Positions 35,160 through 54,824 of a DNA stretch of 64,000 bases are shown piece after piece. The notes under the pieces were generated by a model that ran no database searches, was not told where the DNA came from, and saw nothing but the letters and a program-made list of their open reading frames with translations. The first letter of the stretch is position 1. Every line of letters starts with the position of its first letter. The stretch is from the NCBI GenBank assembly GCA_000146045.2, contig BK006943.2, forward strand, positions 672,001-736,000. The letters are read 5' to 3'. The stretch comes from TPA_inf: Saccharomyces. Lineage: Eukaryota. Both the position numbers and the translations under genes were made by a program.

Positions 35160-36374
35160 ATGTACTTTTTAAACCAACTAATATTTCAAGACGTTTCCGT
35201 AATGTCGGTGGATAAAAGAGAAGATATGAGCAGATCTTTCCAAAAATGTTTAAACTTGAGATACCCTATCATCCAGGCCCCTATGGCGGGGGTCACGACT
35301 ATTGAAATGGCCGCTAAGGCTTGTATTGCGGGCGCCATAGCTTCACTACCCCTATCCCACTTAGACTTCAGAAAGGTCAATGATATTGAAAAGCTTAAAC
35401 TGATGGTTTCACAATTCAGAGATCAAGTAGCCGATGAATCTTTAGAGGGCAATCTCAACCTAAACTTTTTTTGCCATGATATCGTTGATAAACCGACCGA
35501 TCTTCAAACAGCTAACTGGGCGAAGCTATACAGAAAGTCTATGAATGTGCCGATTGATATGAATGAGATTAAATTCGATAATGGTAATGTATCTTTTAAG
35601 GCATTTGAAAAAGAAAATGCTCTTCAAGATTTTTTCCAGTACCTATCAGATGGCTTTAGGCCTAAAATCATTAGTTTCCATTTTGGCCATCCGTCGAAAT
35701 CTACAATAGAATATTTACAAAAAATTGGAATTCTAATTTTTGTGACTGCCACCTCTGTAAGAGAAGTTCGATTGTTAGCACGTCTCGGCATTAATGGCAT
35801 AGTGTGTCAAGGCTATGAAGCGGGAGGACATAGAGGAAATTTCTTAGTAAATGACCCCAAAGATGATGAAAACTTATCAACTGTACAATTGGTGAAAAGA
35901 ACAGTTGATGAACTTGCTGAAATGAAAAATAAAGGTCTTATACATGCTACTCCCTTTGTCATTGCAGCAGGTGGTATAATGGATTCCAAAGATATATCAT
36001 ACATGTTATCACAGCAAGCAGACGCTGTTCAAGTGGGGACTGCTTTTCTTGGTTGCAGTGAATCCAATGCATCAAAAAACTTTTCAAGCCCCTTCACTCG
36101 AGAAACAACAACTAAAATGGTTAATATAATATCAGGAAAGCCTGCAAGGACCATCTCTACTCCTTTTATCGAAAAAGTCATTGCTAATTTTCAAGGTGAG
36201 GAGCTTCCTCCATATGGCTACATGTATAGTGCTTTCAAGCAAGTAAGAAAAAAGTATCCAGAATTGGCTAACTTTATTTTAGCTGGACAAGGATTTCAGA
36301 ATGTCCAATCAGGAATCACAACAGACAAGAAAATTGAAACTATGGGCGCAAGATTGAAAATTGACGGAAAATAA
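35160..36374 (+). CDS. Nitronate monooxygenase (2-nitropropane dioxygenase)-like FMN enzyme, 404 aa, uncharacterised
   Basis: Corresponds to YJR149W. It is an NMO-family TIM-barrel protein (IQAPMAGVTT ... GIVCQGYEAGGHRG). Confidence 0.85.
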   Translation: MYFLNQLIFQDVSVMSVDKREDMSRSFQKCLNLRYPIIQAPMAGVTTIEMAAKACIAGAIASLPLSHLDFRKVNDIEKLKLMVSQFRDQVADESLEGNLNLNFFCHDIVDKPTDLQTANWAKLYRKSMNVPIDMNEIKFDNGNVSFKAFEKENALQDFFQYLSDGFRPKIISFHFGHPSKSTIEYLQKIGILIFVTATSVREVRLLARLGINGIVCQGYEAGGHRGNFLVNDPKDDENLSTVQLVKRTVDELAEMKNKGLIHATPFVIAAGGIMDSKDISYMLSQQADAVQVGTAFLGCSESNASKNFSSPFTRETTTKMVNIISGKPARTISTPFIEKVIANFQGEELPPYGYMYSAFKQVRKKYPELANFILAGQGFQNVQSGITTDKKIETMGARLKIDGK

Positions 36375-36810
36375 TATAAATACATATAAAAGACCTGATA
36401 CTTATTGACACAAATTTTCTGGATGACCTTTTTCTATATGATATATATACGTCGCTATTGGATCGTAGGTTACTTGGCCATTATTTGAGCGTAACCGTTC
36501 ACAGGATGTGGGCTTTAAGGAATACAAAATCCAAATATGGAAAAAATTTGATATCAATTTAGGGCTTTAATATCTAAAGGTATTTATTTTTTTCACAGTT
36601 TTTTTTCTGTTAAGCTGTCTGCAATAAGGAATGCTCCTGACATGAAATTCGAAAAGGACCGGAAATAGTTGGAGCACAAGACTGCAAACTAAAAAACAAA
36701 TTTCTTTGGAATTTCCTTACGCTTATAGTATATATCTTATAAATATTAAAATTAAGAGAATTCAATTATTTTACATCATTTATACAACTGTACAGGGCCG
36801 CACATGATCA

Positions 36811-37707
36811 CTATAACAATAGAGCGGCGGCACCAGCAATAGCAGCGGCACCGAAAACACCGTTATTGAACTTGTTAGCACCGTTAGTGGTAACGTCAAT
36901 AACACGAGATGCTGACGATGTGACAGAAGTAGCTGTAGATTGAGCTTTGGAGGAGACTGGCTTAGTCACAGTTGAACAGACGTTATTTGAACAACTAGTT
37001 ATGGTAGTTTCAACAGTGGAAGCTTGAGTCTTTGTGACGGTGCTGTCAGTACCATTTTGGACCACTGGAGTGACTGAGATAGAAGATGTAGAAGAAACTG
37101 GAGCTGTGGTATTGGCAAAACTAGCAGAGCTTGCAACAGAGCTTGCAACAGAGCTTGCAACAGAACTTTCAGCAGAACTTGCAATGGTGCTTGCAGCAGA
37201 GCTAGATTCAGATGAAACAGTAGCTTGGGTGGAAGCAGCGTTTGAGCTGGTCTCTGCTGAACTTTCAGAGGAGCTAGAAGACTCAGTGGCGGCACTAGAA
37301 GCTTCTGAAGTGGAGGTGGAAGAAGCCTCTGTGGTAGAAGCTGGTACTGCAGTAGCAATACCTTCATTCGCAAGTGCTTCGGAAATAGCACCCATCAATC
37401 TAGTAGAGTACCATGGCACACCGGTGATCATTCTGGTCACTTCATCACCTGAAATACCAGTCAACATGGTGGTGAAATCGCCACCGGCAAAAACAGCCTT
37501 GGCAATTTCAGGTGGGTATGTTTCAGTCTTATGCAAAGCCTGGAAAGCGTAATATTCAGATAAATGGGCGCCAATATCAGAAACGTAAACAGCCAATTCA
37601 ATCAAATTGACCCTTTCATCATAAGGGGATAGAGTGGTGGTCACGGATGCGGCGGTTGCACTTGCCACTAATGCTGCGGCGACAGCTAATATACTAATTC
37701 TAGACAT
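36811..37707 (-). CDS. DAN1: Anaerobically induced GPI-anchored cell-wall mannoprotein (Srp1/Tip1/PAU-domain), 298 aa
   Basis: It has a signal peptide and the conserved PAU-type domain ([33 protein letters not shown]...GVPWYSTRL). The remainder is Ser/Thr/Ala-rich. The C-terminus has a GPI signal ([13 protein letters not shown]). Confidence 0.92.
37115..37200. repeat. Degenerate 12-nt tandem repeat (gagcttgcaaca, about 7 copies) inside DAN1, encoding (SVAS)n
   Basis: Three perfect units lie at 37127-37162, flanked by diverged copies. Confidence 0.85.
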
Positions 37708-37879
37708 TACTTGGGGTATATATTTAGTATGCTACACTTTTATCTGAAAAAGAAGAAATAGTACCGTGTCGACATAAAAATAGTATCATTTAGTCGTGCT
37801 ATTTTATACGCAGTATTTTCAATCATTTCTATTCAATGAGTACCCAGGGACCCTTTTGCATTTCTAGCATTCTCTGTTC

Positions 37880-37887
37880 CTGAACGA
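37880..37887. promoter_or_regulatory. AR1 anaerobic response element (CTGAACGA = TCGTTCAG reverse complement; Upc2/Ecm22-type) in the DAN1 promoter
   Basis: It is an exact match to the published AR1 consensus TCGTTYAG. The same motif occurs at the equivalent place upstream of DAN4. Confidence 0.6.
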
Positions 37888-37903
37888 TGTTTTGTTAGAG
37901 GCC

Positions 37904-37910
37904 TCGTATA
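37904..37910. promoter_or_regulatory. Sterol-response-element core TCGTATA in the DAN1 promoter, 17 bp from the AR1 site
   Basis: The string ctCGTATAga. TCGTATA is the Upc2/Ecm22 SRE core. It is conserved in the DAN4 promoter copy. Confidence 0.5.
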
Positions 37911-38111
37911 GATCTTGGCATTTTCAAAGGCACGCGTTGTATTGTTTTATTGCCTATCAAAGGAACGCGCAGGAAACATGAAACTTTTCAGAGGAGCGTC
38001 TACGGAGGATACATTCATCAATTTTTCCTCATAAATTAAACGATGTGTACAAAAAGGACGAATTGACCCCGTCGTTCGGCGAAACCTTATGTATTTTCCT
38101 GGCCATATGTG

Positions 38112-38119
38112 CTAAACGA
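38112..38119. promoter_or_regulatory. Second AR1 match (CTAAACGA = TCGTTTAG reverse complement) ~410 bp upstream of DAN1
   Basis: It is an exact match to the TCGTTYAG consensus. Confidence 0.5.
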
Positions 38120-40254
38120 CAGATAAAATAGGAAATTCTCCCCATTTTCGACTAATAAGATAAGCGGGAGATAGCATCATATGAACTTTTGCACTCAAAC
38201 GAAGAAAGCACGTGAGGATTGAAGAAAACGGATCGCCGAATCCAGCGTGAATTGAGCTCAACAATTTTTAACTATATCAATCTCTTTCACTTTAAACACT
38301 ACCACTTAAATCTTTTTAAAACGCTTTGCCCAATGACCCTTTTTTTATTAAGGTTGCTGAGCTATTTTTTCTATACTATTGTCAAACTCCAAAGATATTT
38401 TGAGCTTTATTTTCTTGCAAACAAAATACCCTACTGCTTAATAAATGCAATGTATACATAGTTTTCAAGGTACATTATATTTTAAAGTTACCTCAGGCCT
38501 GTTTGCCCTTGCATTCTACAGTCCCTTTGTAAGGGTGTGAGACAAAAGGCCTCGTTAGCTACGACTGTTGAAATCGTTTGAATTCGGCTTACAATCTAAC
38601 TTTGACTGCGCAATTGTTCATGAATTTATAGTGTGCTTGCGAGGGGCAACTTCATACGAAGGCTTGTAGGACCCCTAAGTGCATCCATAAACATGCTCAA
38701 AGATTGTCTTAGAAACCACAAGGAGAACGCACAGTATGAATTAAATAAGTTGCGCTCTGCTAGAATATTTTGACGATTACAAAGTCAGAGATCGAAACAT
38801 TTCCGCTGTGCAACTAAGTAATTTTCCCAATCTTTGGAGAAAATCAATAATCACAAGATTAGTACTTATCCTCTTGTAGGCTTCTCTCTTTCGCTATAAA
38901 TAGAGCAGAAAAATATGATACAGAAGGTCGAAAGTTTGCTTCGCTGACTGAAGCTTTCTGTCAAGAGTTGACAAAAACATACAAGATTCAGTATTGATAA
39001 TAAATGGCCTGCACTTAAGACTCAACCATCCCAATAAGTTACCTAGTTGTGTTACCTAAGCTAGGAAAATACACATTGAAAGATGTTTTACAAAGTATTG
39101 TAAAGGTACAATGCATTCTAGGCCGAATGTTCATTTCGGATTGTAATATGTAGTCAACGATAACGAACCTCATGGTTATGGTTATTTCTGTTCCAAATTT
39201 GCAAAATAGATCTTCATTGTCGTTGTCGGAACGGGTGGTTTATAATTTTAGTAACCATAGTAACTGAATAAAGTGACCAAACAGTATACTTCATAGCTCC
39301 AGGCTAGGAAACAAGATACTACTGCGAAACTAGCGGAAGAAGTTACGTTAAAGATCTATTAATTCAATGTTAATTCAAATTTAATATACGTAGGGATGCG
39401 AGTTATTACATTGGAAATATAGCAAATCACTGAAATACCATCATTTTGAATACATTCGTCATCGCCGCATCAGTTATACGTTTCTGCTATACCGTATAAG
39501 AATACTTGCTTCTATTCTTAGTTATACTGAATTTTAGACATTAATAAACTACTAACGGTTGCTACTACACTACACTATTCTTCTACCAATGTCGATGAGA
39601 GCGAACTCTTCAGAAAGCAGTTTACTTGAATAAATTTTTTCAAAGGCCCTCATTTCTAATGCCTTGTGACCTAGAATTTAGCAGCGTCAACTTTATGGAG
39701 CGTTATTTCTCAATTCCATCTTTGTGCCGCGTAGTTCTATCTTACATAACTTTATTTTAAGAAGAGCTTTAGTTCATGTTCTTGGAAGAATTCCTTTTTT
39801 GACACGATTTTTAACCTAAAGGCTAAATTTTATTTAAACTAACAGTGAACAAAGTATTTAAAGCTTCATATGTGAGTTGTCGAACACGTCAATAAACGGA
39901 GGTAATAAAATGAAGGATGAGGGAAAAAAAAAACCATAATTTTAGGCTGAAGCCCATATTGTGATATTTTTAATGTTTTCTTAGAAAAATTAAAAAACTT
40001 CTCAATTAAATGTAAAATTTTACTTGTTGGCGATACCTTAGAGGATTCAAATTTAACTAGTGTTAATATACGAACTGGTAACACTAATGTTTAGATACCT
40101 GTATATCATACAAACCATTCAAAGTGTATAGGAGTATGTTCACAAACCGTAGTATTATGTGCTACATGAATCAAGTATAGATTTAAAATTTCTTTCAAGT
40201 CAATTTAAATTATTTTACAATTGTTTATATGCTTGTGAAGATTATATTGTATCA

Positions 40255-43200
40255 CTATAGCAGTAATAAAGCGACAACAGCAACGATAGCGGTACCAAAA
40301 ATGTTATCTTTATCGAAATTATAGGCACCGTTGGTATTGATACTGACAGTATAAGAAGCAGATGAATGAGCAATGGAAGTAGCCGAGGAGGCTTTTGGAA
40401 TTGGTGAGATGACTTTGCTGGTAGCGGTCGCGATTGGTGCAGTTAACATGGTACAGGTTCCACCTGAGCAGTTGGTCACAGTAGTTTGAGTGATAGACAA
40501 TCCGGTTCTGGTAAACATGCTAATCCCTGCATCGACAGTAGTCAGGGTGGTACAGGCACCCGCAGAGCAACTGACTTTAATCGCTTTGGGGATGGTCGAC
40601 TCTGCATTGTTCGATGTAGTGGCTTTGGAGTTGAAACTACTAACCGGAGACATCAGCGTGGTGCAAATACCACCCGAACAACTAGTAATAGTAGTTTCCA
40701 TAGTTAGCAACTCGGTTTTAGTAGAGGCGACATCTTCTTCATTATCTTCGCAACTAATGGTAGCGGTGGTAGTTGCTTCGCTGGTGATTGTAGTAACTGG
40801 AACAGTCAGGGTCGAGCAAACACCACCAGAGCATGTTGTTATAGTTGTTTCGACCGTGGAAGTTTCTGTAGTTGTTAATGTGTTCGCCTTAGCATTAATA
40901 GTAGTAACCGGAGACATCAGCGTGGTACAAATACCACCCGAACAACTAGTTATAGTAGTTTCCAAAGTTAGCAACTCGGTTTCAGTAGAAGTGATATCTT
41001 CTTCATTATCTTCGCAACTAATGGTAGCGGTGGTAGTGGCTTCGCTGGTGATTGTAGTAACTGGAACAGTCAGGGTCGAGCAAACACCACCAGGGCATGT
41101 TGTTATAGTTGTTTCGACCGTGGAAGTTTCTGTAGTTGTTAATGTGTTCGCCTTAGCATTAATAGTAGTAACCGGAGACATCAGCGTGGTACAAATACCA
41201 CCCGAACAACTAGTTATAGTAGTTTCAACGGTAGAAACTTGAGTTTTCGTCAAAACACTATCTTCATTAGTACAACTACTCTTACAGCTCGTGATGACAA
41301 TTTCATCTGTTGATAGGTTTGTAAATGTTGAGGTTGCATTACGAACATTTTCTATCGTGCTGAACAGACCGCTACTGATGGTGTTGGAACTTCTGGCATC
41401 ACTGCAATTACTTCTTGAGGATACTAAGAGAGGGGAACTTGATGCAAAAGATGCGACTGACGATGTAGGTTCCATAGAAAATGAAGAGACGATCGATTGG
41501 GAAACAGTGAAAGTACTTAAAGTGAAACTTGACATATTTGATGACGAAAGATATAAGGAAGAAGTCCGCTCAGCAATGAAGCTAGTGGATGTAGACGTAA
41601 TTGCAGTAGACGACTCTGGAGAGGAACTGATTTCACTGAAGGGAATATTAGGAGAAACTGAATCGGTAGAGCTAGTGACCACAGTTGAAGAAACAGCAAG
41701 TGGAGTGGAAGGCGTAGCAAAAAAGGTAGTAGATTGGGTAGAGGAGTTACCAGAGACATCAGATTTAGCAGAAACAGTGGATCTGGTAAAGAAATCAGCA
41801 GCCTTGCTCGAGGAAACAACGGCTGAAGTGAAAGTGGATGTGGCAGATAGACTTTCAGTAGAAGAAATGGATTCATCAGAAGAAGGTCCAACCAAAGAAG
41901 TGGGTTCAACTGATGAACTGATCCCGCTTGAAGTAAGTACTTCAATGGAAGAAGGAATCTCAGAAGAGGAAGTAATTACACTAGAAACTATTAGTTCACT
42001 GGAAATGGTGATTTGATTAGAGGAGATAGATTCTGCGGAAGTGGTTGCTTTACTGAAAGAGAGAGGTTCAGCAGAAGAGGTGATTTCACTGAAAGTAGAC
42101 CCGAAGGAAGAAACAGGTTCTGTCGTGGTCACTTGACTAGACCTGATAGGTTCAACAGAAGAGGTGACTTCACTTACAGTAGTAGGTTCAGCGGATGAAG
42201 TGACTTGACTAGACCTGATAGGTTCAACAGAAGAGGTGAATTCACTGACAGTAGTAGGTTCAGCGGATGAAGTGACTTGACTAGACCTGGTAGGTTCAAC
42301 AGAAGAGGTGAATTCACTGACAGTAGTAGGTTCAGCGGATGAAGTGACTTGACTAGACCTGGTAGGTTCAACAGAAGAGGTGAATTCACTGACAGTAGTA
42401 GGTTCAGCGGATGAAGTGACTTGACTAGACCTGGTAGGTTCAACAGAAGAGGTGAATTCACTGACAGTAGTAGGTTCAGCGGATGAAGTGACTTGACTAG
42501 ACCTGGTAGGTTCAACAGAAGAGGTGAATTCACTGACAGTAGTAGGTTCAGCGGATGAAGTGACTTGACTAGACCTGGTAGGTTCAACAGAAGAGGTGAC
42601 TTCACTGACAGTAGTAGGCTCAGCGGATGAAGTGACTTGGCTGGGACTACTTGAACTGATATATGTATCGCTCGTAGTAGTAGTAGTTGCAGAAGTAGTG
42701 AATGCGTTAGTTGTTGAGACACTAGAGGTTGTATGGTCAGTAGAAGCCGTAGATGTGGCAGGTGTAGTAAGACTGGCAAAAGTGGTAGAGGTTGTAGCAG
42801 TGGTAGAAATGACAGAGGATGCAGAGGCACTAGAAGTACTGAAAGTGCTTGAAGTTGTAGAGGTCGTGGGAGCGGTAGAAATGGTAGAAGTGGTAGAGGT
42901 TGTAGAAGTTGTAGAAGTTGTAGGAGCGGTAGAGGTTGTAGAAGTTGTAGGAGTGGTAGAAGTTGTAGGAGTAGTCGATGTGCTTGAAGTAGTAGGAGTA
43001 GTCGATTTGGTGGAAGTTTGAGAAGTGGTGGAGGTTGTAGAAGTTGTAGGAGTGGTAGAAGTTGTAGGAGTGGTAGAAGTTGTAGAAGTTGTAGGAGTGG
43101 TAGAAGTAGTAGAGGTTGTAGGAGTAGTCGATGTGGTAGAAGTTGTAGGAGTGGTAGAAGTAGTAGAGGTTGTAGGAGTAGTCGATGTGGTAGAAGTTGT

Positions 43201-43740
43201 AGGAGTGGTAGAAGTAGTAGAGGTTGTAGGAGTAGTCGATGTGGTAGAAGTTGTAGGAGTGGTAGAAGTAGTAGAGGTTGTAGGAGTAGTCGATGTGGTA
43301 GAAGTAGTAGAAGTGATAGTGGTGGTAGGAGTAGTCGAAGTACTAGATTTTGTAGTCGTTGTAGAAGTAGAGGTTGGGATAGCCGTGTAAATACCATCCT
43401 TTGAAAGCGCTGAAGAGATAGCCGGCTTTAATCTGGTAGAGTACCACGGAACACCAGTGATCATTCTAGTTACTTCATCACCCGAAATACCGGTCAATCG
43501 AGTAGTGAAATCACCGTAGTCAAAAACGGCTGCTGCGATTTCCGAAGGATATGTTTCAGTCTTATGGTGATTCCGGAAAGAGTAGTACTGAAATATGTGG
43601 GCTCTGATGTCAGAAACATAAACAGCCAATTCAATAAGGTTGACTCTTTCATCGTAAGGAGATAAAGTAGTGGTCGCTGTAATAGCAGCCGCACTAGTAG
43701 CTAAGGCTACAATTCCTGCTACGATGCTTATATTAACCAT
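40255..43740 (-). CDS. DAN4: Large anaerobically induced Ser/Thr-rich GPI cell-wall mannoprotein, 1161 aa, containing three internal tandem-repeat arrays
   Basis: The N-terminal 107 aa are paralogous to DAN1, and the nucleotide similarity between 43419-43683 and 37383-37650 is visible. It is about 50% Ser/Thr. The C-terminus has a GPI signal ([13 protein letters not shown]). Confidence 0.92.
40630..41235. repeat. 264-nt (88-aa) tandem repeat, 2.2 copies, in the Cys-containing C-terminal region of DAN4
   Basis: The string gagacatcagcgtggt recurs at 40647, 40911 and 41175, an exact 264-nt spacing. The unit encodes [44 protein letters not shown](P/S)[32 protein letters not shown]. Confidence 0.9.
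42063..42640. repeat. 72-nt (24-aa) tandem repeat, about 8 copies, in DAN4, encoding [24 protein letters not shown]
   Basis: The unit gtagtaggttcagcggatgaagtgacttgactagacctggtaggttcaacagaagaggtgaattcactgaca is counted at 72 nt and repeats nearly perfectly. Confidence 0.92.
42850..43370. repeat. 27-nt (9-aa) tandem repeat, about 17-19 copies, in DAN4, encoding (TTSTTSTTP)n
   Basis: It alternates ggtagaagttgtaggagt and ggtagaagtagtagaggttgtaggagtagtcgatgt, and the protein shows [11 protein letters not shown] repeated. Confidence 0.9.
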
Positions 43741-43928
43741 TGCTTTCTTCGGAGTTTTTCGGATATCGCAGATTCGACAGGAACTGGTACTTATTTCAGT
43801 TTGAGCATACTCTCAATACAGCCATTTACACAGGCCATTTATAGGCTTTCGAACCAAACAGCTGTTGTATAAACGAATATATTGGAGCAAAATCACTATC
43901 TTTGCCAATGCTTCTTGTTTTACAGTTC

Positions 43929-43936
43929 CTGAACGA
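43929..43936. promoter_or_regulatory. AR1 element (CTGAACGA) in the DAN4 promoter, in the same context as the DAN1 copy (ttcCTGAACGAtg)
   Basis: It is an exact match to TCGTTYAG. The flanks are shared with 37877-37889. Confidence 0.6.
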
Positions 43937-43954
43937 TGGAGATCTTAAACAGAT

Positions 43955-43961
43955 CTCGTAT
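43955..43961. promoter_or_regulatory. SRE core TCGTATA in the DAN4 promoter, 18 bp from AR1, mirroring DAN1
   Basis: The string ctCGTATAat. It is followed by a shared aaaggcacgcg block at 43978-43988, matching 37927-37937. Confidence 0.5.
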
Positions 43962-44091
43962 AATTTTTGACATCTTTAAAGGCACGCGATGTACTGTCTT
44001 TTTCACCGCCAAAGAAATGCGCAGCATGTAAAAACTTCTCCGGAGAAAACGCCTACGGATGGGCAGATCGATCGAATTTCCCCGTGCCTAA

Positions 44092-44099
44092 ATTGTTCT
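44092..44099. promoter_or_regulatory. Rox1/AR2-like ATTGTTCT in the DAN4 promoter
   Basis: The string ctaaATTGTTCTgc fits the Rox1 core of YYYATTGTTCTC. ATTGTT cores also occur upstream of DAN1 (37941, 38613). Confidence 0.4.
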
Positions 44100-47000
44100 G
44101 CTCTTATTATCTGTGATTAAGTGACAGAACTGCAAAAAAAGTTAATTTGATGTCGTCGTTCAATAGACATTCACATAACTTTACTCTACGTGCTATACGC
44201 GCTACCAAACAGAAAGATCACTTTTTCCCAGTCAGTAGACACTGGGTCACTTGGGGTTTAGCACACTCGAAAAGGAGTAAATATGCTGCAAACGAGAATG
44301 TGCAAGCACCATTCAGAGGATCTTAGCTCGTAGAGAGAGAGAAGCTGTTTGTGCTATCCAATTTTGATCCTAGCGCTCCGAAAAAGGTCCGTATTAGGAA
44401 ACTAGATCTTGTTAATTGAAATATCTCCTCATTTTTTTGCAGCCCGCCACTCAATGCGCTTTGTAACCTGTCATAGCTTGCACAGAGAAGTATCAAAGTC
44501 TACATGTGACAAAAAGAAAACCCAAATACTTCTTGGCTATGAATGTTATCGTTTGATGATAACATCCATTCCTCCAATTGGAAAATAATTACTCACGAAG
44601 GTTCTATGCATCCAAAGCGGAACCGTTGCTTTCATTTAATAGAATCCACAGAACTTTTAGTGTGATTTATACGAATTCCAAGGGAGACCTCGACGTGTGA
44701 CTTGAATTAAGAAAAAGCCTTGCCAATCATAATAGTTCATATATGATAAACGGTCTTGATTCGGGTTCTTATAGCAACAGTAACGAAAAATCTCTACCCT
44801 CATAACTTAGTATTGTTGTGTTAGCGGTCATGAAATCTTTTGTATTTCCTTTAACATATCAGTTATATTTTCTTCACGCTACGTCAGCCCCATTATTGTG
44901 CCAACAGTTTACATCCTTTGCATTCAGAGGTGGTTCATTAGTCGCCTACAGCTGCCCGTTTGGAATGACGGCCCGTAGAGGACACGTTAATAGAAGACAT
45001 TCCCCGCGATTCGACGAGTACGGCGCACTCTCAATGATTTGTAAAGGTTTCATATCAAACTATCAAAATATGCGGGGCTCTGCGTAAACAGAAGCAATCA
45101 GACTACATAAGGTCCTCAGTGTAATCTTACCGTAGGCCGATATGTCTTCCATTGTGAGAATTTCTCAACATTCTGTGGTTAATCAACCAAATCATGCGAT
45201 ACTAATGATCTTGACGGGCATACATAATAGAAGCTAAAAAAAAAAAACTAGCCTGAAGCTTATTCTGGGGCCCATATGCTCGAAATGCCAAATTTTCAAA
45301 AATCTAGCCCTACATGCACAACAAATGATTGTGCCTGCCTCCTGGCAGGAAAAGGGTTGATATGAAGATGTCCGGCGGCCTCTTAAACTTAAGATTGAAA
45401 GACATGCTAACCTTGTTCCGTTTTAAGGATAAAGAGGAGCCTCAATAAATGTGTAGTTATCCCTTGCTAATAAAATAGTCTTATTATCTCGCCACTATAA
45501 AAGTCGAAGTAAACAGACAGAGACATGTTCGATACTCCACTTGCACTTCGAAAAAGTAATTAGGAATCCTATATATGCGATGCTATCGTTAATCTTTTAC
45601 CTTCGTTTCCCATCTTATATAAGGGGATGACGAAAATACCTTTCGGCTTACAAATCCATCTGTAACAGCTGAAAAAAAAAACCAGATCTGTTGATCAGTT
45701 GTAATCGTGTAAACGAGTACAAAAGGCCAGAGACAGCTTCTACTCCAAGCTTAAGATACGTATACACAAAAGATTTTTACTTGAAGGAGTAGAGCCGAAG
45801 CGTGTGAGTATGACAGCGCTGCGTAAAACATCAGAGACGTATGTAATCTTCTTGTCTAATCCATTATTGTCAATAACTCAAGCTATATTTACATCTTTAG
45901 CGAAGTCAGAAACTTATTGTCATCCTTTCAAGCCTCGCCGTTGACATCCGCTGTCAGCATCACCCTCACCTAAAGTGTTATTACACGAAGAACTGATTAA
46001 ATACGCCGAGTTTGGGATGACCTGTTCTTACCCGTTCATTCCTTTTTATGGCACACTACGGTTAGTATACGGCGTTGGCCGTGTGATAGGGAAAAATAGG
46101 GTAGGTAATAGAGAACAATTGATGAGTTTTATGTAATTGTATTCGCGCAAAAATAAAAGAATATCAACAAAAAATTTTGATTCGTTTACTTCATAAAAAA
46201 AAATCCTAAAATTTATGAAAATGATTAAAAAAAGACATCCACTTCCCCATAGTGCTAAATTGGTATGGACGTTAAATAGCTTTTATCGTCGTTGGTTTTC
46301 AGACAAATGTGTAGCACCCTAAGTGTGAGATATCATATATTTCAGAGAATATAGCACCAAGTATCGTTATGCGTTCTGGTCCGTACCTGAGAGCTGCTCA
46401 TAAGAATAGGCAAAAGCAAGAAAGAGTGTTCTGTCAGGAATTTTCAAACTATTTACAAGCTAGGAAGGCTATACGTAGTAAATAACAGCCACGATTCGAC
46501 GTGGATAAACAAACATCTACGAAATCCCATTTTGGCATGAAAAAGTGGAGCAAGAAAGACTTGAGGTATGAAATACTTGCAATCTTTCACATCAACACTA
46601 CTTTCAAGATGTTATTGCAAACAGAAAGTGCGATTCTCTTTCTTTCATCCGGGCGTTACAGATGACCATATCTTCAGTGAGGATAACGAAAGATAAAGAG
46701 TGCTGGCTCACATTAATGGAAAAAGAAATCTACCCGCTAATTGTGATGGCTCAGAGTTTCTTCTTATGATAAGGATGTTAGTTTATATCTTGACATGTGT
46801 GTTTCTATTGTACACCGTAATAGCAGATTAGATAAACGAGAGGTCATTCGTAAGGATGAAAAAATGAACATCTGTTTAACTTTCAAGCTTTCTACCATAT
46901 AGCCGAGATGAGCAAATACATTAAAACATCAAAAAGTGGTGCTTGAATGCTTATTTTATGACGCAAAGCAGATGTAATGCATCCCGAGTAAAACAGAATA

Positions 47001-47273
47001 CTTAATTTGACTTCAGCAAAATAACTACCCAGAATGAACACCGAATTTGACATTGATAACAAGACAATCTAGGAATACTTTTACATCAGCACAATATCCA
47101 TGGTGGATCCCGGCGGATTTTTCTTTCTTATTGCACCTTAATCAGGTTTACAGCCTATGACTGACTCTGGAGTGTCCTTTCCCAGTATCTGATTGTTTCC
47201 GCAACATCTATGCATATCAGAGAAGCGTTCTCATCAGTCACTTGACAAATGCTCGAGGAGCTATCATTTGCTG

Positions 47274-47324
47274 ATAAGGTGCTACAGCGCGCTCCTGCCG
47301 CACGCTTTGTTCCTTTTCGATAAG
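47274..47324. promoter_or_regulatory. Two GATAAG motifs (47274-47279, 47319-47324), candidate distal UAS-NTR sites (Gln3/Gat1) for DAL5
   Basis: ctGATAAGgt and tcGATAAGag are read directly. More GATAA/TTATC cores occur at 46690-47060. Confidence 0.5.
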
Positions 47325-47494
47325 AGTCCCTCGCGTTAGTCTGAGTGAAGTGCGGAATTCAGCAAACGAATAACAATCGACCTTATGATCATGTGGATTA
47401 TCGGGGCAAAAGATTTGGCCAAGATGTCAGAGAACGTTATCACCAATCACTCACACAATTAAGTGGTAGTGTAACTCCGAAGATACGGCTAATA

Positions 47495-47506
47495 CTTATC
47501 ATTATC
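47495..47506. promoter_or_regulatory. Tandem TTATC pair (cTTATCaTTATCtg), a proximal UAS-NTR ~165 bp upstream of the DAL5 ATG
   Basis: Two GATAA cores sit 6 bp apart on the bottom strand. A TATATAAA box lies at ~47549-47556. Confidence 0.55.
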
Positions 47507-47665
47507 TGGTTTTCCGAATATACAGATTGGATGAAGTAATATATGTATATAAATGGACCAAGGAAACATCAAATTAGGAGATCATGAGGGAAAGGTTTAA
47601 CATAACAACATTGAAGAAAACAACAAAACAAGGATAATCAAATAGTGTAAAAAAAAAAATTCAAG

Positions 47666-49297
47666 ATGTCAGCGGATGCTAGTACAAATTCGAATGCTTC
47701 CCTAGACGAAAAAAATTTAAACATCACTTCAGAAGCTGAAATCAAGAATGAAGACGTAACCGCGGAGCCAGTTCTAAGCACGGTACTATCACCCAACGGT
47801 AAAATTGTCTACATCAGTGACAAGGTTGATGAGGCCATGAAGTTGGCTGAAGAAGCCAAAGAAATCGAAGTGACACCAGAAGAAGATAGAAAACTTCGTT
47901 GGAAGATCGACTATTGTATGTTTCCTTTGATGTGTATATTGTATGCTGTTCAATTTATGGACAAGATTTCCACTAGTTCAGCGGCGGTCATGGGATTAAG
48001 AACTGACTTGAAAATGCATGGTGACCAGTATTCATGGGTTACTTCCGCCTTTTATTTCGGCTATCTATTTATGAACCTAGGCCCGGTACAGTTCATTTTC
48101 CAAAGGACCAGTCACATGTCAAAAATGCTTGCGGTTTTTATTGTCATATGGGGAATGTTATTAGCTTTACATGCAGCTCCAACAGTTAAGTATCCTTCTT
48201 TCATTGTTTTGAGAGTACTTTTAGGTTGCGCAGAAAGTGTTGTCACACCTTGCTTTACCATTATCACTGCTCAATACTGGAAGACAGAGGAACAATTCAC
48301 AAGAGTATCAATTTGGTTTGGTATGAACGGTCTTGGCTCCATCCTGATCAACGCAATTGCGTACGGTGTTTACATTCACCAGGATTCTTATGCTATTAAA
48401 GGCTGGAGAACCTTATTTGTCATTACTGGTGTGATAACAATCTTCATTGGTATCTTGATATTCCTGTGGATCCCTGACGATCCATCAAAAGCAAGGTTTT
48501 TATCTAAAAGAGAGAAATTAATGGTTGTCCAAAGAATTAGGTCTAACCAACAAGGGTTCGGTAATCACGAGATCAAAAAATACCAAATTATAGAGGCGTT
48601 GAAGGATGTTAGGACGTGGTTATATTTCCTCTTTACTGTGAGCTCTAATATTCCTAATGGTGGTATTTCAAGTTTTATGAGTATTCTATTGAATAGTGAT
48701 TTTGGATATTCATCAAAGGAAACCCTATTAATGGGTTTACCTACAGGTGCTGTTGAATTGGTAGGTTGTCCACTTTTTGGTATTCTAGCAGTTTATGCAG
48801 CCAATAAGAAGATACCATTTTGGAAATATAAGTTGAGTTGGGCTATTTTTGCAGCTGTCTTAGCATTGATTGCTAGCTGCATGTTAGGGTTTGCAACAAA
48901 CTCCAAAAAAGCAAGACTGGCTGGTGCTTACCTGTGGTACATCTCGCCCGTCTCATTTATTTGCGTACTTTCCAATATCAGTGCGAATTCCTCGGGATAT
49001 AGTAAAAAATGGACTGTATCTTCAATAAACTTAGTAGCATATGCTGCAGCTAACTTGGCAGGACCACAAACCTTTATTGCTAAGCAGGCTCCTAAATATC
49101 ATGGCGCTAAGGTCGCTATGGTCGTATGTTATGCTGTTATGATCGTGCTTCTATCTATACTGCTCATCGTCAATTTAAGGGAAAACAAGAGACGTGATAA
49201 GATAGCTGCCGAGAGAGGGTTCCCTGAAGAAACAGAGAATTTAGAGTTTTCTGATTTGACTGATTTTGAAAATCCAAATTTCAGATACACTTTATGA
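47666..49297 (+). CDS. DAL5: Allantoate/ureidosuccinate permease (MFS, Dal5 family), 543 aa
   Basis: 543 aa and 12 TM. The name comes from recognising the protein, its length and its position. Confidence 0.9.
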   Translation: MSADASTNSNASLDEKNLNITSEAEIKNEDVTAEPVLSTVLSPNGKIVYISDKVDEAMKLAEEAKEIEVTPEEDRKLRWKIDYCMFPLMCILYAVQFMDKISTSSAAVMGLRTDLKMHGDQYSWVTSAFYFGYLFMNLGPVQFIFQRTSHMSKMLAVFIVIWGMLLALHAAPTVKYPSFIVLRVLLGCAESVVTPCFTIITAQYWKTEEQFTRVSIWFGMNGLGSILINAIAYGVYIHQDSYAIKGWRTLFVITGVITIFIGILIFLWIPDDPSKARFLSKREKLMVVQRIRSNQQGFGNHEIKKYQIIEALKDVRTWLYFLFTVSSNIPNGGISSFMSILLNSDFGYSSKETLLMGLPTGAVELVGCPLFGILAVYAANKKIPFWKYKLSWAIFAAVLALIASCMLGFATNSKKARLAGAYLWYISPVSFICVLSNISANSSGYSKKWTVSSINLVAYAAANLAGPQTFIAKQAPKYHGAKVAMVVCYAVMIVLLSILLIVNLRENKRRDKIAAERGFPEETENLEFSDLTDFENPNFRYTL

Positions 49298-53783: not shown

Positions 53784-54824
53784 ATGAACACAGATTCACA
53801 CAACCTTAGTGAGCCATACAATATAGGTGGCCAAAAATACATTAATATGAAAAAAAAGGAAGATCTTGGCGTATGCCAGCCTGGCTTAACGCAAAAGGCA
53901 TTCACAGTCGAAGACAAGTTCGATTACAAAGCAATTATTGAAAAAATGGAAGTATACGGACTTTGCGTGGTCAAGAATTTTATAGAGACCTCCAGATGTG
54001 ATGAAATATTGAAAGAAATCGAACCGCATTTTTATAGATACGAATCATGGCAAGGCTCACCGTTTCCTAAGGAAACTACTGTGGCAACGAGATCGGTTTT
54101 ACACTCATCTACAGTCTTAAAGGATGTGGTATGCGACCGTATGTTTTGTGATATCTCAAAACATTTTTTGAATGAAGAAAACTACTTTGCGGCGGGAAAG
54201 GTGATTAATAAATGCACTAGTGATATTCAACTGAACTCCGGTATAGTCTACAAGGTTGGCGCTGGTGCAAGTGACCAGGGCTACCACCGAGAAGATATTG
54301 TTCATCATACGACCCATCAAGCATGTGAACGTTTCCAGTATGGAACCGAAACCATGGTAGGGTTAGGTGTAGCTTTTACAGATATGAATAAAGAAAATGG
54401 CTCTACGCGAATGATAGTCGGTTCACATTTGTGGGGTCCGCACGATTCCTGTGGGAACTTTGACAAGAGGATGGAATTTCACGTTAATGTTGCAAAGGGA
54501 GACGCAGTTCTATTCTTAGGGAGCCTCTACCATGCAGCCAGTGCAAATCGTACGTCACAAGACAGAGTTGCTGGATATTTTTTTATGACAAAGAGCTACT
54601 TGAAACCAGAGGAAAATCTTCACTTAGGGACTGATTTGCGAGTGTTTAAGGGTTTACCATTGGAAGCCTTGCAACTGTTGGGGCTCGGAATTAGTGAGCC
54701 ATTTTGTGGTCACATAGATTATAAGAGTCCAGGACATCTTATCAGTTCTAGTTTGTTTGAAAATGATATCGAAAAGGGGTACTATGGAGAGACAATAAGG
54801 GTGAATTATGGGTCCACGCAATAA
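53784..54824 (+). CDS. Phytanoyl-CoA dioxygenase (PhyH)-like Fe(II)/2-oxoglutarate oxygenase, 346 aa, uncharacterised
   Basis: Corresponds to YJR154W. It is 346 aa with a PhyH-type fold (H..D...H spacing). Confidence 0.8.
   Translation: MNTDSHNLSEPYNIGGQKYINMKKKEDLGVCQPGLTQKAFTVEDKFDYKAIIEKMEVYGLCVVKNFIETSRCDEILKEIEPHFYRYESWQGSPFPKETTVATRSVLHSSTVLKDVVCDRMFCDISKHFLNEENYFAAGKVINKCTSDIQLNSGIVYKVGAGASDQGYHREDIVHHTTHQACERFQYGTETMVGLGVAFTDMNKENGSTRMIVGSHLWGPHDSCGNFDKRMEFHVNVAKGDAVLFLGSLYHAASANRTSQDRVAGYFFMTKSYLKPEENLHLGTDLRVFKGLPLEALQLLGLGISEPFCGHIDYKSPGHLISSSLFENDIEKGYYGETIRVNYGSTQ

Follow-up and report, generated by a model that had tools for sequence, protein, structure and literature searches.

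The 64,000-nucleotide stretch analysed here (the window; Saccharomyces cerevisiae contig BK006943.2, positions 672,001 to 736,000) carries a DAN1-like gene at 36811-37707 and a DAN4-like gene at 40255-43740, and an original prediction had flagged the segment 37860-38000 as a promoter module shared by the two. Our analysis indicates that this segment is very probably the core of an upstream region that controls DAN1 in response to oxygen and sterol, with 43926-44094 as its paralogous copy at DAN4. Both genes read leftwards, on the minus strand, and the flagged blocks therefore lie upstream of DAN1 and their counterpart upstream of DAN4; negative positions below are counted from the start codon (ATG). 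The constrained core spans 37877-37972 at DAN1 and 43926-44024 at DAN4 and consists, in gene sense, of CTGYGC, an A-tract followed by ACAATAC, GTGCCTT, TATACGA and ATCGTTCAGGAA. The paralogous similarity, the motif matches, the deep conservation, the fixed spacing and the lack of gene conversion were observed in this analysis.

When the 1-kb regions upstream of the two genes were aligned locally, the top alignment joined 37876-38037 to 43925-44094 with a score of 69, compared with 23.5 ± 2.2 (maximum 34) for 300 dinucleotide shuffles, which bears out the duplicated module. The promoter similarity was also recovered by blastn (73% identity over 100 bp, E = 2e-9) and is collinear with two stretches of coding similarity, the N-terminal domain (75% over 309 bp) and the C-terminal end with the stop codon (68%). 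Together with the PF00660 domain in both proteins, these three similarities agree with the earlier claim that both the coding N-termini and a promoter cassette have been retained by the paralogues. The words quoted in the original prediction are all present within 3 bp, except that DAN4 reads TGCGCAG in place of CGCGCAG, and its placement of the module start at roughly 170-190 bp from the ATG matches AR1, the anaerobic element, at -173/-180 in DAN1 and -189/-196 in DAN4. The flagged span is not the whole module and cuts off its distal end. When orthologues were added in a second alignment, the paralogy extended from the TATA box to ~-490 in DAN1 and ~-550 in DAN4; on these alignments, the 150-bp module appears as the best-preserved part of a duplicated promoter of ~0.5 kb.

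Orthologous loci from S. arboricola (L001), S. eubayanus (L002-L004), a paradoxus-like Saccharomyces (L006), S. kudriavzevii (L007) and S. mikatae (L009) were reached via the neighbouring YJR149W-like gene. Tblastn identified separate DAN1 and DAN4 orthologues in every fetched species except S. eubayanus, in which three independent assemblies contain one DAN gene that is equally similar to DAN1 and DAN4. The conservation counts given here refer to 11 DAN1/DAN4 promoters, with 450 bp upstream of each gene aligned; the chimeric contig L005 was left out. Between CTGYGC and AR1, 51% of the alignment columns were identical in at least 10 of the 11 promoters, compared with 9-17% elsewhere. The DAN1-DAN4 upstream similarity peaked at ~-150 to -300 in each of the five species with both genes, with z values of 4.4-22.6 above shuffles. 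Absence of the motifs from sensu stricto orthologues had been named beforehand as the outcome that would speak against the module; the AR1, sterol-response element (SRE) and Mot3-type blocks are kept in these species, apart from the SRE in S. eubayanus.

Because the paralogues lie in tandem at a distance of only ~6 kb and share 75% identity in their coding N-termini, gene conversion is mechanistically possible, and the module could be a neutral leftover of conversion or of a recent duplication, with no regulatory meaning. We consider this most improbable. Over the module, promoters of one paralogue lineage are 63-93% identical and those of different lineages 51-67%, the orthologues of the five species form distinct DAN1 and DAN4 groups, and the promoters cluster by paralogue and not by species, both in the identity matrices and in the tblastn assignment. 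The duplication is thus old, and gene conversion is not the explanation of the similarity. Moreover, identity across paralogues between the module and the ATG falls to 41-50%, which is noise, whereas the blocks are identical in at least 10 of 11 promoters, and conservation occurs in discrete 6-12 bp blocks matching known sites rather than in a continuous tract. The grouping of orthologues by paralogue therefore points to selection, not gene conversion, as the force that maintains the blocks. Gene and promoter would have been duplicated as one tandem unit before the S. cerevisiae and S. arboricola lineages split; the sequence between sites would since have decayed to noise, and a fixed site array would have remained under purifying selection.

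We give practically no credence to the idea that the segment encodes a small peptide or a structured RNA, which has the conservation itself in its favour and nothing further. No Rfam family matched in 36000-47700, the open reading frames (ORFs) present are of only 21-59 amino acids with none common in frame to both copies, the orthologues differ by 1-2 bp insertions or deletions between blocks, and the segment lies upstream of a conserved TATA box. This box, found in 11 of 11 promoters, is located on the minus strand at 37802-37808 in DAN1 (gene sense GTATAAAAT, ~-95 to -101) and, in the 11-promoter alignment, at 43838-43843 in DAN4.

The part of the putative control region nearest to the TATA box contains the candidate activator sites. 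AR1 with its conserved flank, ATCGTTCAGGAA (core TCGTTCAG), is located on the minus strand at 37877-37888 in DAN1 and 43926-43937 in DAN4, and is identical in 9 of the 11 promoters, each of the other two having one substitution. On the plus strand, the AR1 word reads CTGAACGA (37880-37887 and 43929-43936); the consensus TCGTTYAG is matched exactly, and the earlier identification of this word as AR1 is supported at the level of sequence. The window contains six exact TCGTTYAG matches on its two strands, three of them at the DAN1 and DAN4 promoters (37880-37887, 38112-38119 and 43929-43936). The motif scan placed TCGTATA on the plus strand, inverted relative to AR1, at 37904-37910 in DAN1 and 43956-43962 in DAN4. 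Its gene-sense form TATACGA is present in 10 of the 11 promoters and deleted in S. eubayanus; the word equals the quoted SRE/AR1c, and its previous reading as the SRE core is likely to be correct. The AR1 and SRE positions fall between -173 and -222, upstream of the conserved TATA box at ~-100.

A 120-bp DAN1 fragment reportedly contains two AR1 copies, both of which are needed. In the literature, TCGTTYAG is described as bound by Upc2/Ecm22, TATACGA is reviewed as the Upc2/Ecm22 SRE identical to AR1c, with TAAACGA as AR1b, and the BTAWACGA motif is found in all DAN/TIR promoters. Upc2 sites are present in PAU/DAN/TIR genes, and Upc2 acts via those sites. Measured start to start, TATACGA and TCGTTCAG are 23 bp apart in all DAN1 promoters and 26 bp apart in all DAN4 promoters. 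This lineage-invariant spacing, with free drift inside the spacer, suggests that SRE and AR1 may be read together, possibly cooperatively.

Two further features were observed around these sites. The AR1-SRE spacer of DAN4 (43937-43962) contains the palindrome GAGATCTGTTTAAGATCTC, conserved in four DAN4 orthologues, and its plus-strand word ACAGATCTCGTATA recalls the ‘CACAGA’ co-element reported beside the SRE of Candida glabrata Upc2A. AR1 and its flank (37877-37888 and 43926-43937) read TCGTTCAGGAAC, with an inverted repeat GTTCnnGAAC inside, which resembles a two-unit heat-shock-element-like nTTCnnGAAn. The DAN/TIR/PAU family is also inducible by cold and temperature shock; this overlap may be a coincidence.

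Further upstream lies the GC block, with the plus-strand word AAAGGCACGCG at 37926-37936 in DAN1 and 43978-43988 in DAN4. The original prediction had treated this block as a shared element and proposed that its AAGGCA could be a Mot3 site. The corresponding Mot3-type site GTGCCTT is on the minus strand at 37927-37933 in DAN1 (plus-strand AAGGCAC) and, in the 11-promoter alignment, at 43979-43985 in DAN4. A match to the Mot3 consensus TRCCTD (HAGGYA) is kept in 11 of 11 promoters, including the two that deviate in sequence, S. eubayanus (CAGGCA) and S. arboricola DAN1 (AAGGTA), and the proposed Mot3 identity is thereby favoured. That the varying bases stay within the TRCCTD degeneracy is the best evidence here for a putative Mot3-type reader. 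S. mikatae, S. kudriavzevii, S. arboricola DAN4 and S. eubayanus have other bases in place of the CGCG beside AAGGCAC. The CGCG half is thus not conserved, the GC block does not hold as a unit, and the element is the AAGGCAC part only.

The same comparison bears on whether the GC block (AAAGGCACGCG, CGCGCAG) is read not by Mot3 but by a CGCG factor, for example one of the MluI cell-cycle box (MCB; ACGCGT) type or of the Rsc3 type. CGCG is found in both copies, and S. cerevisiae DAN1 has a perfect ACGCGT at 37932-37937. We nevertheless regard this as very unlikely: GTGCCTT stays where the orthologues replace CGCG, and the conserved word of the second block is CTGYGC, which most DAN1 orthologues spell as CTGTGC, without CGCG. 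The MCB was rejected as a candidate, with ACGCGT in the S. cerevisiae and paradoxus-like DAN1 promoters only and not in DAN4 or the other orthologues.

Between the Mot3-type site and the CGCGCAG block we identified a plus-strand ATTGT (37941-37945) that had been overlooked. It belongs to a high-mobility-group (HMG)/Rox1-type core on the minus strand at 37938-37945, ACAATACA in gene sense and preceded by a conserved A-tract; every DAN1 orthologue keeps this core, as does S. eubayanus. The block formed by the A-tract and ACAATAC (37938-37951 in DAN1, 43990-44003 in DAN4) is identical in at least 10 of 11 promoters. At the homologous DAN4 position (43990-43997, minus strand) the core is degenerate, with ACAGTACA in gene sense and ACTGT on the plus strand. 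Among the DAN4 orthologues, those of S. kudriavzevii and S. arboricola have an intact TTGT, the word obligatory for Rox1, but it is broken in S. cerevisiae, S. mikatae and the paradoxus-like species. DAN1 has been reviewed as haem/Rox1-responsive and DAN4 stated not to be regulated by Rox1.

Additional Mot3-type sites were found in each paralogue. DAN1 contains a second, lineage-specific site on the minus strand at 37951-37956 (gene sense TAGGCA; motif scan), and its ATAGGC is conserved in all DAN1 orthologues in the first alignment. The DAN1 ACAAT core is thus flanked by a pair of Mot3-type sites of opposite orientation, TGCCTT at 37927-37932 and TAGGCA at 37951-37956. In DAN4, a lineage-specific insertion (44085-44099, minus strand) contains a Mot3-type TAGGCA at 44085-44090, conserved in the DAN4 lineage, and ATTGTTCT at 44092-44099, in S. 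cerevisiae only. As a separate observation, the plus-strand word CTTGGCA at 37914-37920 (gene sense TGCCAAG), between the DAN1 Mot3-type site and the SRE, is kept in DAN1 of S. cerevisiae, the paradoxus-like species and S. kudriavzevii, reads CGCCAAG in S. mikatae and is not found in DAN4; presumably this is a PacC/Rim101-type word.

The distal boundary of the core is the CTGYGC box, on the minus strand at 37967-37972 in DAN1 (gene sense CTGCGC; plus-strand CGCGCAG, 37966-37972) and at 44019-44024 in DAN4 (plus-strand GCGCAG). It is present in 11 of 11 promoters. Distances along the array are nearly fixed, with 27-30 bp from CTGYGC to ACAATA, 12-13 bp from ACAATA to GTGCCT and 23-25 bp from GTGCCT to TATACGA. 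The figures for GTGCCT to TATACGA and for TATACGA to AR1 exclude S. eubayanus, in which both distances are shorter because the SRE is deleted. Beyond the box, a weakly conserved CTACGGA (gene sense TCCGTAG) is found on the plus strand at 38000-38006 in DAN1 and 44053-44059 in DAN4; it is common to both S. cerevisiae genes and degenerate in S. kudriavzevii, S. arboricola and S. eubayanus.

Based on the published roles of the proteins that bind such sites, we propose how the region would work. A review attributes DAN/TIR/PAU expression to Rox1-Mot3 derepression and Upc2-Ecm22 activation. Falling sterol and haem would bring Upc2 and/or Ecm22 into the nucleus, where they would act on the inverted pair of TATACGA and TCGTTCAG, and on weaker TCGTT sites upstream and downstream, to activate transcription. 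Under aerobic conditions, the adjacent operator would be occupied by Mot3 and a Rox1-type HMG protein, which would bring in Tup1-Ssn6 and silence the gene. The operator would comprise the Mot3-type TRCCTD site, the A-tract and ACAAT core 12 bp away and the second Mot3-type site in each paralogue, and the CTGYGC box, 27-30 bp further upstream, would be part of the same array.

Several observations weigh against this assignment. HAGGYA is frequent, at ~1.3 matches per kb per strand in the window, and the Mot3 match is therefore weak taken alone and draws its weight from conservation. The S. eubayanus promoter has a deletion of ~25-30 bp that removes the SRE but leaves the other array members, AR1, the Mot3 site, ACAAT and CTGCGC, and the SRE-AR1 pair is thus not indispensable in every lineage. 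The broken core of DAN4 would fit the reported Rox1 independence of this gene at the homologous position only, and the claim that DAN4 lost its Rox1 site is weakened by the ATTGTTCT elsewhere in S. cerevisiae DAN4, beside a conserved Mot3-type site. The DAN1 HMG core matches the Rox1 consensus YYYATTGTTCTC at only 9 of 12 positions, with TTGT intact (ATTGTT). Finally, the CTGYGC box is the sole conserved block without an assigned factor.

The incomplete Rox1 match raises the alternative that the A-tract and ACAAT core form an activating AR2-type HMG site, or the site of another HMG protein such as Ixr1. DAN1 has a perfect AR2 (AAAAATTGTTGA) at 38258-38269 with the same ATTGTT core, and we take AR2 to be a proposed target of an activating HMG protein. 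We judge this unlikely, if less so than the alternatives above, because the TTGT required by Rox1 is intact, Mot3-type sites lie on both sides in DAN1 as in Rox1/Mot3 operators, DAN1 is reported to respond to haem and Rox1, and the orientation of the core is opposite to that in AR2. A Rox1-type operator remains our preferred reading of this block. For CTGYGC, we tentatively raise the possibility that it is the site of a factor new to the anaerobic regulon and that box, Mot3/HMG operator and SRE-AR1 pair make up one array of fixed geometry. In favour of such a factor, every one of the 11 DAN promoters has the box, its distance from the HMG core is fixed at 27-30 bp, and it recurs as CTGCGCA in PAU promoters of S. 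cerevisiae and S. uvarum; the lack of CTGYGC in the one S. mikatae PAU promoter examined and a CTGYGC-SRE distance that differs between PAU and DAN promoters count against it.

We compared PAU promoters from S. cerevisiae (L011), S. uvarum (L012 and L013) and S. mikatae (L014). They have the element order and orientation of the DAN promoters in a looser chain: TGAACGAGGGT at ~-420, CTGCGCA at ~-305 (not in S. mikatae), TATACGA at -247 to -264, TCGTTCARGAAC (TCGTTCAGAAAC in S. cerevisiae) at -224 to -238 and TATAAATAG at ~-100 to -110. The S. uvarum and S. mikatae promoters also have TCGTTT, at -134 to -157, with none there in the S. cerevisiae PAU promoter. Both strands of 233 kb of window and loci were searched with a regular expression for CTGYGC, ACAATA, ATACGA and TCGTTYAG chained by flexible gaps, which matched only the DAN1 orthologues, S. 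arboricola DAN4 and the S. cerevisiae PAU promoter; the remaining DAN4 promoters fail at the ACAATA term only. The module of the original prediction is real in both genes and not specific to this pair. Since PAU promoters carry the looser ordered chain, the cassette is probably ancestral to the PAU/DAN family and family-wide. A scan of metagenomes for TATACGA-N12-24-TCGTTCARGAA gave chance matches; among the matches listed, the only yeast one (L076) is S. cerevisiae DAN1 itself.

The region is consistent with the AR1/SRE systems of DAN/TIR/PAU and ERG genes (Cohen et al. 2001; Vik & Rine 2001; Gallo-Ebert et al. 2013, via citing reviews), with exact TCGTTYAG and TCGTATA words and several sites per promoter of anaerobically induced SRP1/TIP1-family mannoprotein genes, and shows no essential difference from them. 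To this picture our analysis adds the fixed inverted SRE-AR1 pair, the conserved 4-bp AR1 flank TCGTTCAGGAA and the site correspondence among DAN1, DAN4 and PAU genes. The putative operator resembles the Rox1/Mot3 hypoxic operators of ANB1/TIF51B, HEM13 and COX5B (consensus YYHATTGTTCTC and TRCCTD) in having a Mot3-type site by an ATTGT core, with a second one on the other side in DAN1; it lies directly upstream of the activator sites, and DAN1 is reported to be under haem-dependent repression. Unlike in those operators, the Rox1 half of DAN1 is weak (9/12), and three species have a broken version at the homologous DAN4 position; the DAN family is reported to be only partly Rox1-dependent.

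As in other cases of cis-module retention after tandem duplication, promoter and coding sequence behave as one unit and the binding sites are the surviving islands of identity. The difference lies in changes confined to a single paralogue: loss of the -130 TCGTTTA in DAN1, TCGTTTAAT at -330 and AR2 in DAN1 only, and the 30-bp insertion in DAN4 only. These gains and losses are mild regulatory divergence of the usual kind, and may be the reason why DAN1 and DAN4 are reported to differ in their dependence on Rox1. The underlying biology, Upc2/Ecm22 activation and the Mot3/Rox1 repression architecture of DAN/TIR/PAU genes, is already known; phylogenetic and paralogous footprinting recovers this published logic, with little significance past annotation. 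What is added are per-site coordinates, the invariance of spacing, the paralogue-specific site changes, the family-wide extent and the CTGYGC box. The SRE-AR1 spacing, the site gains and losses and CTGYGC could guide the engineering of anaerobic or sterol-responsive expression cassettes.

Among the blocks on the gene-proximal side, an AR1b-type TCGTTTA is located at -130 on the minus strand of DAN4 (43870-43876) and is found in all DAN4 orthologues. The TCGTT(TA) block, identical in at least 10 of 11 promoters, corresponds to 37835-37839 in DAN1 and 43872-43876 in DAN4; DAN1 of the S. cerevisiae clade has lost the -130 TCGTTTA, S. cerevisiae reading TCATT at 37835-37839. Nearby, the plus-strand GGACCCT at ~37848-37854 (gene sense AGGGTCC, ~-140) is conserved in four of the five DAN1 orthologues, and we take AGGGTCC to be an Nrg1-type word. 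The same type of word occurs as ACGAGGGTCC by the distal TGAACGA (~-420) in the S. cerevisiae and S. uvarum PAU promoters (L011 and L012), and as ACGAGGGTTT in S. mikatae.

Distal to the core, an AR1b-type TCGTTTA specific to the DAN1 lineage was found by the motif scan at -330 (38037-38043, minus strand); CATCGTTTAAT is conserved there in DAN1 orthologues, and DAN4 reads GTCACTTAAT. An Upc2-type core TCGTTC, common to both paralogues, is on the plus strand at 38072-38077 in DAN1 (-365) and, in the 11-promoter alignment, at 44156-44161 in DAN4 (-416); its gene-sense GAACGA is present in 10 of 11 promoters. DAN1 has a distal perfect AR1, TCGTTTAG in gene sense, on the minus strand at 38112-38119 (-405), for which the second alignment gave GCGTATAG at 44193-44200 as the DAN4 counterpart. 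The most distal shared block in that alignment is TCGTTTG, on the minus strand at 38196-38202 in DAN1 (-490) and 44289-44295 in DAN4 (-550).

The AR2 site of DAN1, a perfect match with AAAAATTGTTGA in gene sense (38258-38269, minus strand), is conserved in DAN1 orthologues only; it was rejected as a part of the shared module, since neither the motif scan nor the second alignment found one in DAN4. At 38255-38269, this AR2 overlaps GCTCAACAA on the opposite strand, which presumably resembles the low-oxygen response element ACTCAACAA. A CACGTG E-box lies 45 bp from AR2, at 38208-38213; S. cerevisiae shares it with S. mikatae and the paradoxus-like species.

The DAN1-like gene (36811-37707, minus strand) was taken from the ORF list and encodes 298 amino acids with an SRP1/TIP1 N-terminal domain (Pfam PF00660, E = 1e-24). 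The DAN4-like gene (40255-43740, minus strand) encodes 1161 amino acids, with the same domain followed by Ser/Thr-rich tandem repeats. S. arboricola Dan1p is the best named homologue of the 36811-37707 product in the protein search. The DAN1-like gene adjoins YJR149W-like and BAT2-like genes in several species, and on chromosome 10 of both S. kudriavzevii and S. mikatae the BAT2-like, YJR149W-like and DAL5-like permease neighbours follow one another as they do in the window. Because of this homologue match and the conserved neighbour order, we accepted the names DAN1 and DAN4. Exact-sequence cluster look-ups of the DAN1-like and DAN4-like proteins found neither, and the names therefore rest on homology and synteny. 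The full-length DAN1 protein search returned nine matches, dominated by Ser/Thr-rich words, and the search with the DAN1 N-terminal domain alone returned mostly PAU proteins.

At the S. eubayanus locus (L002-L004, 6980-10000), no DAN4 lies between the single DAN gene and the DAL5-like permease, and the YJR149W-like gene is on the far side of the permease, not adjoining DAN1. The chimeric L005 (an ENA contig of 2131 bp) joins bases 1-993, equal to window 53832-54824, to bases 987-1846, which hold the DAN1 promoter and N-terminus, and bases 1843-2131, which are 72-bp repeats of DAN4; the contig probably represents either an artefact of assembly or an allele that is a hybrid of DAN1 and DAN4. The intergenic regions 38500-40254 (~1.7 kb) and 44500-47665 (~3.2 kb) contain no ORF of at least 200 amino acids and no tRNA gene. 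Compared with the paradoxus-like species, 38500-40254 aligns in patches, with no alignment longer than 150 bp reported over 38464-39200 and 66% identity over 39201-39756. The DAN4 coding sequence itself has three in-frame tandem-repeat arrays, at 40641-41226, 42131-42639 and 42843-43347, with units of 264 bp (2.2 copies), 72 bp (7.1 copies) and, in the remaining array, 18/27/54 bp. All three encode a Ser/Thr-rich stalk, and these arrays are likely to differ in length between strains.

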